This document shows positions 2,013-12,022 of a DNA stretch of 16,264 nucleotides, piece after piece. The stretch comes from a virus. Made by a program: the position numbers and the translations under genes. The notes under the pieces were generated by a model. It was not told where the DNA came from and did no database searches. It saw nothing but the letters and a program-made list of their open reading frames with translations. The number at the start of each line of letters is the position of its first letter. Within the stretch, counting starts at the first letter, position 1. The DNA lies in the UHGV virus genome UHGV-0349264. The stretch is one strand, 5' to 3'.

Positions 2013-2636
2013 CTAACGTGTGACCGCATTCAAAATGTTGTCTGCGATTGACTCTTCCTTGTGGCATTGCACCACCAGAGCGTCATACAGCGGCTTAACA
2101 GTGCGTGACCAGGTTGGTTGGGTAAGGTTGGGTATTAGCATCGTCACAGCGCGATATGCTGCGCTTGCTGGCATCCTTGAATAGCCGACGCCTTTGCATC
2201 TTCCGCACTCTTTCTCGACAACTCTCCCCCACAGCTCTGTTTTGGCAATATCAACCGCACGGCCTGTACCATGGCAATCTCTGCATCTTGCCCCCGGCGT
2301 CGCGGCACTACGGCAATAATCCGCATAAGCGAATGTTGCGAGCACTTGCAGTACCTTTGCCTTAGTATTTCCTTCAAGCTTTGCCACACCACGGTATTTC
2401 CCCGATACCTTGTGTGCAAATTGCATCAGATAGTTGATAGCCTTTTGTTTGTCGTTCTGGCTGAGTTCGTGCTTACCACAGAATGCAGCCATTCCGAATC
2501 CGGCTTGTGATTGCGCCATCCCCATAGCAGCCATCACATCAGTACCGGAAAGAGAGTCAGAAGCCGTAGCCCGTGGTGAGTCGCTCATCATCGGGCTTTT
2601 TGGCGAATGAAATTTAGCTACGCTTTCGAGTCTCAT
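2013..2636 (-). CDS. Q: Late-gene antiterminator Q (lambda type)
   Basis: 207-aa product MRLESVAKFHSPKSPMMSDSPRATASDSLSGTDVMAAM... with the Cys-rich zinc-binding region (CRDCHGTGR...CGRCKGVGY). It matches lambda Q as recalled and lies directly upstream of pR'. Confidence 0.95.
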   Translation of the reverse strand: MRLESVAKFHSPKSPMMSDSPRATASDSLSGTDVMAAMGMAQSQAGFGMAAFCGKHELSQNDKQKAINYLMQFAHKVSGKYRGVAKLEGNTKAKVLQVLATFAYADYCRSAATPGARCRDCHGTGRAVDIAKTELWGRVVEKECGRCKGVGYSRMPASAAYRAVTMLIPNLTQPTWSRTVKPLYDALVVQCHKEESIADNILNAVTR

Positions 2637-3180: not shown

Positions 3181-3467
3181 GGCTTAATCTTCCCCTCCTT
3201 CAGCAGTATCGCCTGCGTCCTGATCACGCCTTCGAGGTGGTAAAGTCTGGCGTCTTTGTTGTCGAGGTTATGGGTGCGTCGGTCGATTTCATCGTGACAC
3301 GCGCTACAAGCCCATGCGCCGATCAGGTCGTCAGGCTTCATTCCCGTTCCGCAAATTCCAGCCATCCGGTAATGTGCCAGAACTGTAGTTTCAGGATTGC
3401 CATTGCATACGCCGTAAATACGTACCTGGCATTCTCTGCCGCGTGCTTCTTTGCGTAGATTAGCCAT
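3177..3467 (-). CDS. ybcO: YbcO-like (DUF1364) Cys/His-containing protein, putative nuclease
   Basis: 96-aa product MANLRKEARGRECQVRIYGVCNGNPETTVLAHYR...CSACHDEIDRRTH resembles DLP12 YbcO as recalled. It overlaps rusA by 4 nt. Confidence 0.75.
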   Translation of the reverse strand: MANLRKEARGRECQVRIYGVCNGNPETTVLAHYRMAGICGTGMKPDDLIGAWACSACHDEIDRRTHNLDNKDARLYHLEGVIRTQAILLKEGKIKP

Positions 3468-4189
3468 TAAGCAGCCTCCCCGGTTACTTTCAGCATTCCG
3501 TTATCGAGCAGCTTTCTGGTCAGCCACTGTTGACCACGCCCGGTGATTTTTGTGGTGAACGATATCTGTATTCCGTGATTTGTGTTGACCGCTGTTTCTT
3601 TCACTGTGAAATAGCCGCGATCCATATATTCCTGCATTGGCACATTGCGCCGGGAACCTGAAGCAATAAGGATTTTGTGATCGCGCATCCACGCAAACAG
3701 TTTGTTTGGACCAATTCCAACAACCTTTGCAAAGTTTCCAATCAAAATTCCGCTGGCCTCGCCAACGCGATCGGCAAACTCAACTTTAGGTGCGGCAATT
3801 GCGAGCTGGTTTTCCAGTTGCATTTTCTGCTCAGCAAGATCAGCAGCAAGGCGCAACGCTTCTGGTAGCGTTTTGGGGATATTAACCGCAGCTTCTTCAA
3901 GCTCTCGCCAACGGTCAACAAGACGAGCGGTGAATTCCGGCGACAACTGAGCGACGACAATAATGCTGTCTCGCTTACCTTGTTCGCCCTCAAAAACGTA
4001 AGCCTCTACGCCACGAAGTAATCCTAAGTTATTGATTTTTTCGAAAACCACCATTGGGGGATTTCGGATCACACCTCGAGCCGCCAGTCGTTCAATAGAT
4101 TGTTTCACCTTGTCATGACGACTTCCCACCAACTCAGCGATTTCAATGCTTGTCATTTTGATGGCATTGCCATTTATTAACTCATTCAT
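3467..4189 (-). CDS. Antirepressor-like protein: N-terminal Rha-type regulatory domain plus C-terminal KilA-C/ANT-like domain
   Basis: 240-aa ORF. The N-terminus (TSIEIAELVGSRHDKVKQSIERL) looks like the phage Rha regulatory domain and the C-terminal half looks like the KilAC antirepressor domain. Its start overlaps the ninF stop (ATGAATGA) and its stop overlaps the ybcO start. Confidence 0.7.
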   Translation of the reverse strand: MNELINGNAIKMTSIEIAELVGSRHDKVKQSIERLAARGVIRNPPMVVFEKINNLGLLRGVEAYVFEGEQGKRDSIIVVAQLSPEFTARLVDRWRELEEAAVNIPKTLPEALRLAADLAEQKMQLENQLAIAAPKVEFADRVGEASGILIGNFAKVVGIGPNKLFAWMRDHKILIASGSRRNVPMQEYMDRGYFTVKETAVNTNHGIQISFTTKITGRGQQWLTRKLLDNGMLKVTGEAA

Positions 4190-5181: not shown

Positions 5182-7575
5182 TCATACGTCAGCCCCTTGT
5201 GCATATCGTCTGCCACGTGCAGCAGGTGCATTTGATGTTGTGCAAATCTGTCTGGCTTCATCCTGGTCACATGCAACAAAGTGTCCGTTGCAGAACCGCT
5301 GGTAAACCGTACCAAGCGAGCCAAAACGGTTTTTTGTCACAATGATTTCAGCAAATGGCGCGGCGCTACTGTTCTCGTCATATACCGCTTCCCGATAGAG
5401 CATGATGATTGAGTCTGCGTCCTGTTCAATGCTTCCTGAATCACGCAAATCTGCGTTTGTCGGGCGTTTGTTTGGTCGCTTCTCAACATCGCGCGAAAGC
5501 TGACTCAGGGAGATAACAGGCGTTTTCAGGTCTTTCGCCATCGCCTTCAGGCTTCCGGAGATGTGAGCAATTGCGAGATCGTTGCGATCTGCTTTAGGCT
5601 TCTCAATCAGGCCAAGATAATCCACCATGATGAGTGACAGGTTTGGATTTTCCTGTTTATGCCGTTCTGCGATTGAGCGTATTTCTTCGACCGATAACCG
5701 AGAGGCATCGACTACCCATACATCCAAATCTGCAAGCTGACTCATGCCGTTAGCAACACGCGCCCAGCCTTCGTCATCCATCGATGCAGGATTTCGCAGT
5801 ACGCTAACCGACATCCTCCCGGCGTTGGCAATGCTTCGCTCTGCAATCTGCAATGCGCTCATTTCCATTGAGAAAATCAATACCCCGCGCCGGACGTCAG
5901 AACCAGGAATAACGCGGCTTGCCACGCCTTCGGCAATCTTCAGCGCCAGTTCCGTATTGTGCGTAACGATGTAATCCGTTGTCACATAGAGATGACTAGG
6001 ATGGCTTACCATGATGCAGAGACACTCTTCTGGCTCAACAACTTCAACCGATTTGATACCCACACCAAGGTTACCAAGCCTGTTAATCCCGAGATTTTTA
6101 CGTAAACGTGGTGAGTGAATTTGCTCTATCAAAGATGATGGCAACTTCATGCTGACCATGTGTGCGTCAAGTCCGGCATGCTTCTCTCCTTTGTACGTGT
6201 AAACTATTCCCGTCCTGCTGGATTCTTTGGCGGTTCCACCTAAAGATCTAACAAGCCTTACTAATCCTTTAGCTAATTTCTGACTTGATGAACTAAAGCG
6301 GATGCATCCGGACTTCTCAACCCAGCCATCTGTCTCGAGCAGGCCAGTTAAAACACCGGTACGTATTTCTTTGCTAGCACTAAAAATTTCTTCTGGGATT
6401 TCCTTCTCGGACGCACCTTTCCCGATCACCCCAATGCCACGTAGTTTGTCCAATAGTGGGTTCTTCTGGCCTTTTTGGTTACTTATCAAATAATCATTCT
6501 CTCCTACCTTAACCAGTCGCAGTGGTGCAATTGCATCACTCATGCGGCTCAGGACATATTCTTCCGAGTTGGTGAATTTGATGCCTTTTATCAACGAACC
6601 GTCACCAAGTAGAGCCCCAATAACCCAACCATCAAGGGGAATATTTTTACCAAAGTCTCCGGTCAAGGATGGCACTCTTATTCTTCCCTGATAACGTGTT
6701 TTTTGTAGCATCCCAGCCAGCGCATCAGTATCAACAACGCGTTTACCAGTAAATCTTGATGATGAAATTTCCCATAAGTGGTTGTCGGCACATTTCACGC
6801 TACGTCCGTCTTCAAAGGTGACTAAATATGTGAATTTCTTCCCTTGCGGGAAGACGCCAATTACCTCCGAAGGAAGCCCGTCTATTGACGCGATGCGATC
6901 GCCAATTTTGACTTCTCCGTGAGTAGTCCAGGTGCCATCTGCAAGTAAAATCCCTTCGCTTAGCGCCATTGCTTTCCCCATACCAGGACGAGCAGCGATT
7001 ATCACAAGGTCTTCTGCGTTCATCCCTCCGGTGATGGCATCAAGTTCTTCGATTCCGGTCTTCAGGGTATCTGACTCTTCTCCGTTCCTCAGACGCCTGT
7101 CAAGCGTGTCAGTGTAGTCAGTGATGATTTCCCCTAACCGCACCGGTTTAACCTCGTCACGGGGCTTTCTGATGGCTGAGAGACGCTTTACAAGCTCATC
7201 CATCGCCTGACTCGATGCGTCGATGGTTCCGCTCCGAATTGGTTCACGCATTTCATCCATGATTTCCAGCACCAGACGGCGGTGATAGTTATCCGCGACC
7301 ATTCCGGCATATCCCTTCAGGTTTGCGGCACTCGGGCAGTTTTTGCTGGTCATCAGGATTGACGTGAAATGCTCCTCTCCGCACTCCTCGGCAACCAGCA
7401 GCGCGTCGATTAGGTTTCTGTTTCTCGCCTGCTTGCGGATAACCTCGAAGGCTTTTCTGTAGAGCGGAATTGAAAACGCTTCCGGCTCAAGCGTTGCCAG
7501 AACGTCACTGGCGGTTGGAGTTAATCCACCAATCAGCAAGCCACCGATAACGCTCGCTTCGATATCCTGTCTCAT
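5182..7575 (-). CDS. dnaB: DnaB-family replicative helicase interrupted by an in-frame intein in the Walker A P-loop
   Basis: 797-aa ORF. Residues 1-201 (ending ..[13 protein letters not shown]) and 541-797 ([64 protein letters not shown]) align with the DnaB N- and C-terminal domains. Extein total is 458 aa, similar to P22 gp12-type helicases. Confidence 0.9.
5956..6972 (-). other. Intein (339 aa) with LAGLIDADG homing-endonuclease domain, inserted between Lys and Thr of the helicase P-loop
   Basis: The insert begins [15 protein letters not shown] right after GMGK and ends ..DYIVTHN, followed by Thr that restores GMGK-T. Two LAGLIDADG-like motifs are present ([23 protein letters not shown]). 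Block B reads H-L-W, block F contains ECLC, and block G reads T-H-N. Confidence 0.75.
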
Positions 7576-8393
7576 GCAATCCCCCTGTCTGCAAACTTCC
7601 CTTCCCGAACTCCCGTTAACGAATCTTCTCTCAGCAAGTAATCAAAATCAGCCGTCCAGCCCGTGTCGTTGTCTCCGAAGTAAAACGGCTTGGCCTGATG
7701 TACAAACGCCCTGACATACGCTCTGAAACCGTCCACGTTTGGCGTTTTCAGTTGTGGGATGATTTTCTTCAGGCGGCGTTTGCGTTTCTCGTTGACCGCA
7801 ACAGCGTGTGGAAGTCTGTCACCGACTTCGGTGTTGTAGGCGTTCAGGAAGGATTCGTAGTCGATTCGTTCTGCCTTGCGACGTTCAGGTTTAACCTGCC
7901 CATCGCCGCCCCCGTTAGGGGGTAAGGGGGTATTTGTATTTATTGTCTTTTGTATATTGTCTTTTGTGTTTAGCTGACTTGGCTTATACCCATTAGCCGA
8001 CTTGGCTAATGTTTTATTAGCTGTTTTAGCTAATGTTAAGCTGTCCTGGCTAATCCACTGCGAAACCACCTTGTTCACTCCGATTTTCACGCCATCAGCA
8101 ATGAGGAATTTACGCTCAATAAGCTGGCGCTTGGCAGCGCAAACATGAGTGTGATGAATACCTGTCATGGCTGCTATCTGCGTGTTTGTGAGTCGATCCA
8201 TCGGCTTATTGAATCCGTATGTCTTGCGCATGATAGCGAGCATCACCTTCAACTGCCGGACGGTTAAATCAGCCATCAGCAGACTGTCGGTAATCTCGTT
8301 AGCAACGCGCATGAAACCATCTTCGGTATCTGCCACGCGATGCTCCACGACCTCCAGTTGAGGCCTGTAATCAGCTAACTTAACGACGCCCAT
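7572..8393 (-). CDS. O: Replication initiator, lambda O-like (replisome organizer)
   Basis: 273-aa ORF immediately upstream of and overlapping the helicase. The N-terminal domain resembles phage O proteins, the central low-complexity linker is encoded by the iteron array, and the C-terminal domain is non-lambda. Confidence 0.85.
7928..8054 (-). repeat. Replication origin inside the O gene: four ~16-bp iterons plus adjacent AT-rich region
   Basis: Direct repeats AGCTGACTTGGCTTAT (7972), AGCCGACTTGGCTAAT (7995), AGCTGTTTTAGCTAAT (8019), AGCTGTCCTGGCTAAT (8039), followed in the O direction by an AT-rich tract (7928-7970, tatttgtatttattgtcttttgtatattgtcttttgtg). Confidence 0.65.
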
Positions 8394-8541
8394 GTTTCAC
8401 TCCTGCTTTGGCTAGTCTGTAAACACCAACAAGGCGCTCTGCGAACGCCCTGTTATTTGCTGCGGCTACCACTAATCCCTCAGGTGAATCAGGGTGTCGA
8501 ATCTCTTCTTTTTCCTGGTATTTCTTACGACGTTTTGTCAT
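8380..8541 (-). CDS. Small basic hypothetical protein (53 aa) between cII and O
   Basis: Hand-translated: [61 protein letters not shown] sits 5 nt upstream of the ATG, and the stop overlaps the O start. Below the ORF-track size cutoff. Confidence 0.3.
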   Translation of the reverse strand: MTKRRKKYQEKEEIRHPDSPEGLVVAAANNRAFAERLVGVYRLAKAGVKHGRR

Positions 8542-8573
8542 AATTACTCCTGTGGATTGATCCAGTAATTCCC

Positions 8574-8870
8574 TCAGAATTGCATATCAATTTGCTTAAA
8601 ATCCTCGGTGGCAGCCGGGGATTTTTTCTTTGTGATTTCATCAAGCGCATACTTAAAAGCCCTGCTAATCGGACTGATGTCTGATGCCATTCCGAAAGCA
8701 CACAAGACCGAAGCAATAAACCGCCAGTCCGTTCTGCTTATCTTCGATTCATGACAGCCAATCATCTTTGCCAGACCGCGCTGTGTAAGCGTTGACAGGT
8801 TGATGAGTAAATCTGTTTCTGCGCGATCAACGTCGCGCTGTGATAGTTTGCTGTAACTTGTTCGTTCCAT
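8574..8870 (-). CDS. cII: CII-like transcriptional activator
   Basis: 98-aa ORF after cro. HTH region LTQRGLAKMIGCHESKISR and C-terminus KKKSPAATEDFKQIDMQF resemble lambda CII (..KKRPAATERSEQIQMEF) as recalled. Confidence 0.8.
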   Translation of the reverse strand: MERTSYSKLSQRDVDRAETDLLINLSTLTQRGLAKMIGCHESKISRTDWRFIASVLCAFGMASDISPISRAFKYALDEITKKKSPAATEDFKQIDMQF

Positions 8871-8955
8871 TTCTTAAGATTTCCAATAGTGAATAGTTAG
8901 TTGAAAGGTATGCGTGGAAACGCATATGGCCTTAGTTGGTCAGATATCTTGGGAC

Positions 8956-9001
8956 TCGCTTTTCAGCGACGTAGGACGAATGTCCGTTATTACAAAGAGC
9001 G
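8956..9001 (-). promoter_or_regulatory. Candidate nutR (boxA-like CGCTCTTTG and boxB-like hairpin UCGC-UGAAAA-GCGA)
   Basis: Minus strand between cro and cII: CGCTCTTTG at 9001..8993, then a stem-loop tcgctgaaaagcga at 8969..8956. Same boxA/boxB spacing and GAAAA-type loop as the nutL candidate. Confidence 0.4.
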
Positions 9002-9011
9002 GCTCCGCTTA

Positions 9012-9227
9012 TTAAGCGGCTTTGTGCTCCGGCGGGAACACGTCATCAAGACTTACTTTTGCGCCTAACTTGTTTAGACACGCAACAAGAGCACGGCATG
9101 TTTTAAGGTCTGGGAAGCGACGACCAGATTCCCAATGTCCGATAGCTCCCTGTGTGCATCCAACTGCCTTAGCAAGTGTTGTTTGAGAGATATTCAGTGA
9201 CTCTCGATATTTTCGTAGGTTGCTCAT
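9012..9227 (-). CDS. cro: Cro-like repressor (XRE-family HTH)
   Basis: 71-aa ORF divergent from cI, with RBS GGAGG. HTH ISQTTLAKAVGCTQGAIGHWESGRRFP shares a TQGxIGHW signature with the cI N-terminus. Confidence 0.8.
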   Translation of the reverse strand: MSNLRKYRESLNISQTTLAKAVGCTQGAIGHWESGRRFPDLKTCRALVACLNKLGAKVSLDDVFPPEHKAA

Positions 9228-9252
9228 ATGCCCTCCATAGTAACCACGAATA

Positions 9253-9282
9253 AAAAATACAATATGTACTTCTCAAATACAA
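9253..9282 (-). promoter_or_regulatory. Candidate PR promoter (-35 TTGTAT, 17-nt spacer, -10 TATTTT) with overlapping operator
   Basis: Minus strand: TTGTAT-ttgagaagtacatattg-TATTTT, about 25 nt upstream of the cro RBS. The 15-mer AGTACATATTGTATT (plus 9256-9270) overlaps the -10. Confidence 0.5.
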
Positions 9283-9337
9283 GTAAAAATACACATTGTG
9301 CATGGATGGTTCCAGTACAGAGCGTAATAATAAGGAC

Positions 9338-9997
9338 ATGAAAATGAAATGGTATGAACTGGCTAGATCCAGAATGAAAGAGCTCGGCATAACTCAAGAG
9401 AAGTTAGCCGAAGAGCTAGGTATGACGCAGGGTGGAATTGGACACTGGTTGCGCGGATCTCGTCATCCATCTCTTAGTGATATTGGTGTGGTGTTTAAAT
9501 ACCTTGGTATTGATAACATATCATTCAACCACGACGGGACATTTTCACCTGTTGGCGAATACTCATCGGCCCCAGTTAAAAAACAATATGAGTACCCTGT
9601 TTTTTCTCATGTTCAGGCTGGGATGTTCTCTCCAGAACTCAGAACCTTTACCAAAGGTGATGCGGAGAGATTGGTAAGCACAACCAAAAAAGCCAGTGAC
9701 TCTGCATTCTGGCTTGAGGTTGAAGGTAACTCAATGACCGCACCAACAGGTTCCAAACCTAGTTTTCCTGACGGGATGTTAATTCTGGTTGACCCTGAGC
9801 AAGCTGTTGAGCCCGGCGATTTCTGCATAGCCAGACTTGGTGGTGATGAATTTACCTTCAAGAAACTGATCAGGGATAGCGGTCAGGTGTTTCTACAACC
9901 ACTAAACCCGCAATATCCAATGATCCCATGCAATGAGAGTTGTTCCGTTGTGGGGAAAGTTATCGCCAGCCAATGGCCTGAAGAGACGTTTGGGTAA
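9338..9997 (+). CDS. cI: CI-type prophage repressor (HTH N-terminal domain plus S24/LexA-like C-terminal domain)
   Basis: The C-terminal ~135 aa (..[85 protein letters not shown]) match lambda CI as recalled; the N-terminal ~85 aa do not. Start placed at ATG 9338 (or 9344) after RBS AAGGA; the track ORF begins further upstream at 9296. Confidence 0.9.
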
Positions 9998-10370
9998 AGA
10001 GGATAGATGGAGTTTAATGGCCATGAGTATCAAGCGGTCAAAAAGAAGTTCATCTATTCATTGAAAGCATAAGGCCATCTGAGTATATCCGTAATGATCT
10101 GGATATTGTCTATAACATCAATGACCGGACGATAGATATCGGTGAGCAGCGTCCTGTATGGCAGGGTGAGGCAGGTGAAAAAACGTCCTGCCATCAACAA
10201 GAATCAAGTGCATCCGCTCTCTGGACAGATGGAAAATTTATTGGATGCAAAAAGATATGAAATAACACCTGTATAGCACGGAGCTTTCTCTGACCGATGC
10301 ACTTGAAGTTGTTAGGGCTGACCCAGCCTGCTGTTTCTTTAGGTAAGAGAAAAGAGATTTAGGAGATGAA

Positions 10371-10398
10371 AGGTCGCAGAGGTGCGGCCTTTTTTATT
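10371..10398 (+). terminator. Intrinsic terminator downstream of cI
   Basis: AGGTCGCA-gagg-TGCGGCCT (8-bp stem including one G-U pair) followed by TTTTTTATT. Confidence 0.65.
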
Positions 10399-10437
10399 GA
10401 GAGTGGATCTTGAACGGAAATTCTCAAGACTTGAGTC

Positions 10438-10466
10438 TTGCATGCAAATCAATTCCTGGATAAACT
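10438..10466 (+). promoter_or_regulatory. Candidate sigma70 promoter for the 173-aa gene (-35 TTGCAT, 17-nt spacer, -10 TAAACT), overlapped by dyad-symmetric elements
   Basis: TTGCAT-gcaaatcaattcctgga-TAAACT about 33 nt upstream of the ATG. Overlapping palindromes CAAGACTtgAGTCTTG (10425-10440) and TCTTGA..TCAAGA (10408-10429). Confidence 0.45.
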
Positions 10467-10498
10467 CGATCTGAGTCAATAACTTAGAGAGAGAGCAA

Positions 10499-11020
10499 AT
10501 GGCAAAGTCAAACGTTAGCGTGCAGGCATTCAAGGACTTCCTTGAAGAGCTTATGTCGCTGAACATAATGAAGGAGGCCACCGCTCGAAATTTAAAAAAC
10601 TCATCCGCTCGCCTCTTAACGGTAGTCCAAGAAGAGGAAATGGGTGATGTTACTCAGCTTGATGTGAATGAGCTTGCCGAGCGATACATCAACGCAACTG
10701 AGCCGAAGCCTAGCGACAGCAGCATTACTGCATATAAAAGCCGCATGGAAAGTGCAATCAAAAAGTTTGTAGCTTTCCAGTCTGGTGAAGAAATCCCATA
10801 CACTCCGATTGACAAAGAATCCAGTGAGGAAAAAGATTTGACTGGCGAACCAACAAAAGTCGAAGGCAAGGCTAATGCACTTCATACCTATGATCTTCCA
10901 GTAGTTCTTCGACCTGAATCAGGGGTTACAGTAACGATTAAAGGCATTCCTAACGATATCACAAACGAAGAAGCCGAACGCATCTCTTCAATTCTGAAGG
11001 TTTACGTTCGGCCTCAATAA
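10499..11020 (+). CDS. Hypothetical 173-aa acidic protein in the cI-pL moron (rex) slot
   Basis: Clean ORF with no significant overlapping ORF of known function, its own promoter and upstream terminator, and an AG-rich RBS region. No motif I can recognise; hydrophilic, no TM segment. Confidence 0.75.
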   Translation: MAKSNVSVQAFKDFLEELMSLNIMKEATARNLKNSSARLLTVVQEEEMGDVTQLDVNELAERYINATEPKPSDSSITAYKSRMESAIKKFVAFQSGEEIPYTPIDKESSEEKDLTGEPTKVEGKANALHTYDLPVVLRPESGVTVTIKGIPNDITNEEAERISSILKVYVRPQ

Positions 11021-11193
11021 TGCAAAAGCATTCAGCACAATGTCCAACTCCCCAGTCCGACATTGATGCTGTTTAACCAGAGCCTCCAAAAGGAGCCCTT
11101 GTTAAGGTACACAATATTTGCGATGTAACCTTAGCGCGTCTGGTACATTTTTTCAAGCGGTTGTAGGGCTGCCGCCAATATGAGAAAACACAG

Positions 11194-11316
11194 ATGTCTA
11201 CATACAATTTGAATGACCAATTCGATCGAGAAGTTCATGTGAATGCCTATGAACGGATAAGGCATGGAAATCTTGAACATGTGTGTGAGCATTATCGCTC
11301 AAGGCCACACCGCTAA
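11194..11316 (+). CDS. Possible 40-aa ORF ending 5 nt before an intrinsic terminator
   Basis: Hand-translated MSTYNLNDQFDREVHVNAYERIRHGNLEHVCEHYRSRPHR. Weak RBS; it may be non-coding. Confidence 0.2.
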   Translation: MSTYNLNDQFDREVHVNAYERIRHGNLEHVCEHYRSRPHR

Positions 11317-11321
11317 TCATC

Positions 11322-11350
11322 AACCCGGCCTCCATGCCGGGTTTTCTTTT
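11322..11350 (+). terminator. Intrinsic terminator closing the moron transcription unit
   Basis: AACCCGGC-ctccat-GCCGGGTT followed by TTCTTTT. Confidence 0.6.
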
Positions 11351-11531
11351 CCTCTCGCCCCAAAAAAACACATAACCAATTGTATTTATTGGAAAATAAA
11401 TAGATACAACTCACTAAACAACGCAATTCTGATCTCTCCTTACATCGCCGAGGCAATACACCCACGCTAAAAAACAATACTATTAAATACAAAGCGTTGT
11501 AAAAAACCGCCCCGTTTTAGAACAAATTGTA

Positions 11532-11560
11532 TTGACCAAGTGGAGTACATATCGTACTAT
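11532..11560 (+). promoter_or_regulatory. Candidate pL promoter (-35 TTGACC, 17-nt spacer, -10 TACTAT) with overlapping operator
   Basis: TTGACC-aagtggagtacatatcg-TACTAT. The 15-mer AGTACATATCGTACT (11544-11558) matches the OR 15-mer at 13 of 15 positions and overlaps the -10. Confidence 0.5.
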
Positions 11561-11651: not shown

Positions 11652-11749
11652 GATCACCCAACCACATAAGCTGTGGGATGCAATGCCGAAGCAACCGTCT
11701 CAGGAGGAGCTTCGAGATTGCATCGCCAAAGTTTATTCGGGAGGAATCT

Positions 11750-12022
11750 ATGTCCAGAAAAACAGAATTTAAAGGCACCGCAGCTTCTCGCCGTAGAGCT
11801 CGTCGCGCAAACCTGCAAAGTCAGGAGGCGATTAGCTCCGACAAACTACACAGGCCAACCCCATCACGAGTGGTCTTACAATGCAAACGCAAACCAGCAA
11901 TGAGAGCAGAAGTAATAACACTGACAACGTTGACCAGAAAATATGAAGGCTCAACTTGTCTTCCAAATGTAGCTCTTTACGCGGCAGGCTACCGTAAATC
12001 CAAACAACTGACAGCAAGATGA
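11750..12022 (+). CDS. N: N-type transcription antiterminator, P22 gene 24-like
   Basis: 90-aa product from the internal ATG after RBS GGGAGGAA. It has an N-terminal arginine-rich motif (TAASRRRARRANLQ) and a C-terminus LPNVALYAAGYRKSKQLTAR resembling P22 N (..LPGVALYAAGHRKSKQITAR) as recalled. Confidence 0.85.
   Translation: MSRKTEFKGTAASRRRARRANLQSQEAISSDKLHRPTPSRVVLQCKRKPAMRAEVITLTTLTRKYEGSTCLPNVALYAAGYRKSKQLTAR

Follow-up and report, generated by a model that had tools for sequence, protein, structure and literature searches.

A lambdoid prophage CI repressor with a VT2-Sakai/Nil2-type head and a lambda-type C-terminal half

Described relatives of the repressor and layout of the window

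In phages 434 and P22, Cro and the repressor head are paralogues with recognition-helix residues in common. The repressor head and tail of these phages are separable modules, and domain swaps between them have been engineered. The tails of the 434, P22, and engineered-swap repressors are about 39-46% identical to the tail of the repressor described here, in which the swap is natural.

Lambda CI was placed by Fagerlund et al. (2022, PMC8951638) in the same clade I as the Stx-phage repressors considered here, with 61% overall identity. In phage epsilon34, the repressor tail is about 80% identical to those of lambda and HK97, and the head shares about 50% identity with those of L, VT2-Sa, and Nil2 (PMC2629481). 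The same study inferred lambda-like inactivation by RecA and a different operator specificity. In vitro, lambda CI binds the VT2-Sa operators weakly, i.e., at 3.7-6.4 µM vs. 0.2-3 µM for its own operators (PMC10742460). The gene sequence, the resemblance to lambda CI, and the division into two modules had all been recorded before, and the discordance of head and tail has been published for epsilon34. The repressor type is annotated and well populated, and its build is textbook lambdoid modular mosaicism. New from the present analysis are recurrent crossovers in the tail and a cargo slot with two homology arms.

The gene at 9338-9997 corresponds to RefSeq WP_001302016, in clade I of the Stx-phage CI repressors. 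More than 40 phage records have this gene at 100% nucleotide identity, including Nil2, the Stx1-converting phage (AP005153, BAC77937), Stx2 II, 1717, 2851, YYZ-2008, and the PA series. The Nil2-type phages have the same downstream cargo, and their cI shows no difference except for the public start codon. The cI of VT2-Sakai is near-identical, i.e., 99.8% in nucleotides over the C-terminal segment and 98.8% in amino acids in the head. OR and full-length cI of this type were found in 776 of 5426 complete E. coli genomes. Because the phage records were sequenced independently and the gene is full-length in so many complete genomes, the chance that the hybrid is an assembly or sequencing chimera is close to nil. 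The repressor governs induction, hence toxin release, in a large group of Shiga-toxin phages and is therefore of medical relevance.

Lambda CI (NP_040628) resembles this repressor in 135 of 136 tail residues, in the divergent cI-OR-cro layout, and in the predicted PRM geometry. However, the lambda head is 21-30% identical and has an N-terminal arm, the lambda operators are of the TATCACCGCCAGTGGTA type, and rexAB follows cI, whereas an HTH_3-type Cro and a 173-aa ORF are found here. The repressors of the Salmonella phages epsilon34, c341, and vB_SosS_Oslo (Oslo) have the same length and architecture and a similar published operator consensus (WTACRAWWTGTAT), and Oslo has a homologous cargo ORF after cI. 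Their tails, however, belong to a different allele family (75% nt). Judged from sequence, their head specificity is probably either different from that of the present head or overlapping with it.

The window, i.e., the whole stretch of 16,264 nt that was analyzed, is the early region of a lambdoid prophage (Table 1). The layout and motifs read from the sequence correspond to a lambdoid bistable switch, with divergent cI and cro, three 13-mers in OR, three in OL overlapping a PL-like promoter, and N downstream, the operators being putative as targets of CI and Cro. CII and O lie beyond cro. Outside the immunity gene, the window is a different mosaic, and the best single phage record covers at most 56% of it in one place.

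Table 1. Coordinates of the features in the window (nt, numbered from the first letter of the stretch)
Feature	Position	Strand	Remarks
Q	2013-2636	-	
Antirepressor	3467-4189	-	
DnaB-type helicase	5182-7575	-	
O	7572-8393	-	
cII	8574-8870	-	
cro	9012-9227	-	71 aa, HTH_3-type, paralogous to CI head
OR (putative operators)	9257-9327	.	13-mers at 9257-9269 (ATACAATATGTAC), 9289-9301 (ATACACATTGTGC), and 9315-9327 (GTACAGAGCGTAA)
Alternative annotated start ATG	9302		231 aa; RefSeq and Sato (AP005153)
cI repressor ORF	9338-9997	+	219 aa
Non-lambda HTH_3 head and first part of linker	9338-9586	+	VT2-Sakai/Nil2-type immunity determinant
Alternative annotated start ATG	9344		217 aa; annotated in phages 683R2 and Oslo
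Mosaic joint in inter-domain linker	9575-9587	.	Just 5' of conserved YEYP motif; DNA identity step
Lambda-type module	9587-9997	+	Distal linker with cleavage site, and S24 catalytic/oligomerization domain; 135/136 aa match lambda
Ala94-Gly95, predicted autocleavage site	9617-9622	+	Lambda Ala111-Gly112; within VQAGMF, identical to lambda
Leu112	9671-9673	+	Lambda Trp129 (mature numbering); sole aa difference from lambda C-terminal half
Ser132, catalytic by alignment	9731-9733	+	Lambda Ser149
Lys175, catalytic by alignment	9860-9862	+	Lambda Lys192
Variable cargo slot	9998-11321	+	rexA-rexB position in lambda; holds the 173-aa ORF
173-aa ORF	10499-11020	+	
Conserved block	11322-11438	+	Lambda 35708-35826, just past rexB stop; hairpin and T-run at 11322-11352
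OL (putative operators)	11487-11560	+	13-mers at 11487-11499, 11520-11532, and 11545-11557
N	11678-12022	+	N peptide family
recT		+	

The DnaB-type helicase of the window is a separate case. The protein is 797 aa long and, outside an insertion, about 99% identical to HK97 gp55 (458 aa). The insertion occupies codons 202-540 (about 5953-6972), i.e., exactly 339 aa, and splits the Walker A loop between GMGK and T. LAGLIDADG and homing-endonuclease domains are found within it, and its last residues are YIVTHN, with Thr as the next residue. It is a probable intein with Ala as the first residue instead of Cys or Ser, and we take it to resemble the class 3 DnaB inteins. A literature search on this insertion found no report. 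The same insertion was present, at 98.6% identity, in 51 Stx2a phage records, where the gene is annotated merely as helicase or hypothetical.

The two modules of cI and the joint between them

With a probability of roughly 0.9, the gene encodes a functional prophage repressor of the VT2-Sakai/Nil2-type immunity region, which is a natural two-module protein with a recombination joint in its linker. The head module, i.e., cI codons 1-83 together with cro and OR, would be inherited as one specificity unit. The tail module, i.e., codons 84-219, is of the same allele family as lambda CI and carries the Ala-Gly site, the Ser/Lys dyad, and the surfaces for dimer, tetramer, and octamer formation. The joint would have arisen by recombination between two repressor lineages.

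The ORF is open over its length. In the Pfam search, HTH_3 was found at residues 11-58 (E 1.9e-10; bit score 41, cut-off 23) and Peptidase_S24 (PF00717) at residues 87-209 (E 1.1e-28). With an HTH_3 head, an S24 domain with its Ser/Lys dyad, and Ala-Gly in the linker, the protein has the sequence features of the LexA/CI-type autocleaving S24 repressors.

The original prediction held that the repressor matches lambda CI from about residue 90. The match is real, but it begins earlier; in BLASTP against lambda CI, residues 84-219 correspond to lambda residues 102-237 with a single exception. The Ala-Gly region and the catalytic Ser and Lys, which were also said to match, do align with their lambda counterparts. 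From YEYP to the stop codon, the tail is 99% identical in amino acids and 93.1-94.6% in nucleotides to lambda and HK97, where at least 95% and at least 90%, respectively, define the lambda C-terminal module. Its matches in the PDB at E 1e-65 to 1e-96 were 3BDN, 8GMU, 1F39, and 1KCA, and 2HO0 was also among the best; all are lambda repressor structures. The tail is not equally close to other S24 repressors, as its amino acid identity is 99% to lambda vs. 80% to epsilon34/Oslo, 64% to TL-2011c, 46% to P22 c2, and 39% to HK630.

Because the segment that carries these activities in lambda CI is identical in all but one residue, RecA-stimulated self-cleavage, formation of dimers, tetramers, and octamers, and cooperative binding would be expected as in lambda. 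The exceptional residue, i.e., W129L in lambda numbering, lies in the linker and could alter the kinetics of cleavage. Trp is kept at this position in phages 683R2, Louie, and Oslo.

At the DNA level, the only match to lambda within cI is a gapless one at 9587-9993, with 93.4% identity over 407 nt. In 30-nt windows, identity to lambda was 13-40% up to 9548, 53% at 9563, and 83% at 9578, and then 87-100%. Pairwise alignment with lambda thus located a discrete joint nine codons upstream of the Ala-Gly site, where a stretch of about 20 nt takes identity from the random level to about 93%. Among the head-less matches listed from E. coli genomes, all start at query position 360, which is position 9587 of the window. 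On the other side, the similarity to lambda stops at the cI stop codon, and the next lambda-like stretch is the conserved block. The two halves also have discordant trees, i.e., epsilon34/Oslo (48-52%) rather than lambda (21%) is the neighbor of the head, whereas the tail is nearest to lambda. A mosaic joint inside cI, as originally proposed, is supported by these comparisons, because synonymous similarity is kept 3' of 9587, in the tail, and absent 5' of it, the relationships of head and tail are discordant, and the listed head-less matches begin at this very position.

The tails of lambda and the window differ by 27 synonymous changes and one non-synonymous change (dS 0.39, dN 0.003, dN/dS 0.008). 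The tail is under extreme purifying selection, and the divergence between the two tails is old. Together with the distant homology of the heads, this selection would suit a history in which a single ancestral cI diverged in place without recombination, with a fast head under selection for new specificity and a slow tail. That history is nevertheless very improbable. The tail dS is merely 0.39, yet upstream of 9575 the DNA is no more alike than random sequence and differs in length by 18 codons, and variation in rate cannot remove synonymous similarity so abruptly, i.e., within about 20 nt. The discordant trees and the existence of natural crossover products, which are described below, also speak against it.

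Head, Cro, and operators

The head was 96-100% identical in Stx phages and other coliphages, 48-52% in the epsilon34/Oslo-type repressors, 25% in the TL-2011c type, and 21% in lambda. The prediction had called the N-terminal HTH domain unrelated to that of lambda, which does not hold. The head aligned with the lambda N-terminal domain at 30% identity over 50 aa (E 8e-8), and the lambda N-domain structures 1LLI and 1LMB were among its best PDB matches. It is therefore a distant HTH_3 homologue of the lambda head, with 21-30% identity. Because its N terminus is about 18 residues shorter, the lambda N-terminal arm has no equivalent in it.

CI and the adjacent Cro (CTQGAIGHWESGRRFP) both carry the signature TQGxIGHWxxGxRxP, as had been noticed at the outset, and the CI head and Cro are 35% identical over 62 aa (E 9e-13). 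The recognition helix TQGGIGHW would be common to CI and its paralogous HTH_3-type Cro, and the two proteins would read the same operators. These operators at OR and OL would have the form ATACA-N3-YGTAY, which is unlike that of lambda.

The gene falls outside the lambda immunity group. Its head is only 21% identical, no nucleotide similarity to lambda was detectable in the head-coding part of cI, OR, and cro, and the operator motif is different. It falls within the VT2-Sakai/Nil2 immunity type, with 100% nucleotide identity over 9228-9997 in the best-matching E. coli genome. The difference in operators supports, as far as sequence can tell, an immunity different from that of lambda.

In the whole window, the motif ATACANNNYGTAY at no more than one mismatch had seven matches vs. 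2.25 expected, and five of the seven lie in OR or OL. This enrichment is moderate, being reached by 5 of 200 shuffles. At two mismatches, no enrichment over shuffles was seen (41 vs. 33). The operator 13-mers are conserved across alleles, whereas the spacers vary. The operators at OR and OL are already annotated as putative in AP005153 (Sato et al.). The OL coordinates were derived by motif, and those mapped from AP005153 differed by 1-3 nt owing to indels outside cI. The last two OL 13-mers are overlapped by the PL-like promoter, TTGACC-17-TACTAT at 11532-11560, which points to N.

From a PRM-like promoter with AATAAT at 9326-9331 as its -10 element, transcription would begin at A9338 and yield a leaderless mRNA. 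This start would put the center of the middle operator at -43, as in lambda, and that of the proximal operator at -17, a spacing that we presume to be close to the lambda PRM geometry. The acidic residues E21 and E25 align with E34 and D38, the positive-control residues of lambda, and activation of PRM by the repressor may be predicted from this alignment. The start codon can be considered in the same light. Between 9302 and 9337, six of six substitutions among alleles are non-synonymous, while the operator 13-mer there is retained, which argues that this segment is regulatory DNA rather than coding. The predicted geometry of operators and promoter and the substitution pattern favor a start at 9338 or 9344 over the public 231-aa annotation.

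Recurrent exchange in the tail and the downstream cargo slot

The sample consisted of 80 IMG/VR loci with tails of at least 99% protein identity and the phage loci in hand. Among the 88 loci with tails at this identity, only two head types were found, i.e., lambda-type (67) and Sakai-type (21). In the phage collection, 98 records with tails of at least 95% identity were accounted for by the two head types (63 and 36 records). HK97 had been expected as a third head type on the same tail, but its cI is lambda-type.

The 408-nt tail had about 36-37 alleles with 88 variable sites and mosaic site patterns. The four-gamete test was failed by 268 of 903 informative site pairs, and the Hudson-Kaplan minimum was 11 recombination events in 408 nt. 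Individual phages show the same exchange. Phages 683R2 and Louie have a Sakai head with lambda-like polymorphisms from the first tail sites, and in phage E212 the pattern switches in mid-tail. In a locus of E. coli A41 (NZ_CP028735), a lambda-type head is followed by a tail with epsilon34/Oslo-like residues in its 3' third (QPVDPGDF, IKDSG, and QFPIIPCNENCNIVG). Exchange of the tail module therefore extends to the allele family of Salmonella phages, which is more distant.

The clearest crossover product is the contig IMGVR_UViG_2778261064_000020, which is the equivalent of 8087-11494 of the window. Its head, which is 99.7% identical to lambda in nucleotides, and its OR are lambda-type, and its tail has lambda-like polymorphisms up to 9700. 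Over 9701-11360 (1660 nt), the 173-aa ORF included, it shows no difference from the window, and the two part again at about 11361, within the conserved block. This contig is a natural recombinant with a crossover inside the C-terminal segment. The exchange between head and tail is thus recurrent and not a single fusion. Homologous crossovers recur in the tail because the two immunity types have about 410 nt of DNA in common there, at 91-95% identity.

Four downstream cargo classes were found with either head type, and 76 of 91 loci carried the conserved block, with identities of 82-99%. The variable cargo slot therefore lies between two homology arms, the shared tail and, as the second arm, this block. 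The block is also probably the terminator of the immunity operon. Tail crossovers would reassort immunity specificity against whatever lies downstream, and the tail and the block together would swap the cargo after cI. At the population level, the C-terminal segment is a homology tract through which lambda-like and Stx phages repeatedly exchange immunity and cargo, in line with the classical modular view of how lambdoid phages evolve, which it leaves unchanged.

The direction of the original transfer can be read in another way, i.e., lambda cI itself may be the derived hybrid, with the C-terminal module native to the Sakai/epsilon34-type lineage and gained later by lambda-type heads. The nearest non-identical relative of the window head, epsilon34/Oslo (48-52%), has a tail 80% identical to the shared module, and the downstream cargo is found in Oslo as well, with 86.5% nt identity. 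The nearest relative of the lambda head, the TL-2011c type (56-62%), has a tail just 64% identical. Because the shared tail is nearer to the Oslo tail than to the TL-2011c tail, there is a weak hint that lambda was the recipient. However, only two outgroups bear on this, recurrent exchange erases direction, and the cargo of Oslo is more similar than its tail (75.5% nt), so the region itself is mosaic. Lambda as the derived hybrid is a fair candidate with somewhat less than an even chance. It is compatible with the two-module explanation, which holds in either direction.

A further consequence of the two-module explanation is suggested here only tentatively, and it is rather unlikely. Lambda-immunity and Sakai-type prophages that share one cell have near-identical dimerization and tetramerization domains and could form mixed dimers or oligomers that bind neither operator set well. 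The shared 410-nt segment could likewise serve as a standing recombination arm by which Stx phages switch immunity or cargo with harmless lambda-like prophages. If mixed oligomers did form, they would couple or destabilize the lysogeny of co-resident prophages and hence affect the induction of Stx phages.

The 173-aa ORF in the cargo slot had no match in Pfam or PADLOC. It matched PHROG 2602, a family of unknown function, and no other family. The ORF was conserved at 100% in 44 Stx-phage records, and it is a candidate for an exclusion or conversion gene expressed from the prophage. At 10368-10396 on the plus strand, about 370 nt past the cI stop codon, a GC-rich hairpin followed by TTTTTTATT (GGTCGCAGAGGTGCGGCC TTTTTTATT) was found by eye and was not listed by the scan. 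This hairpin may terminate part of the cI transcription ahead of the 173-aa ORF.
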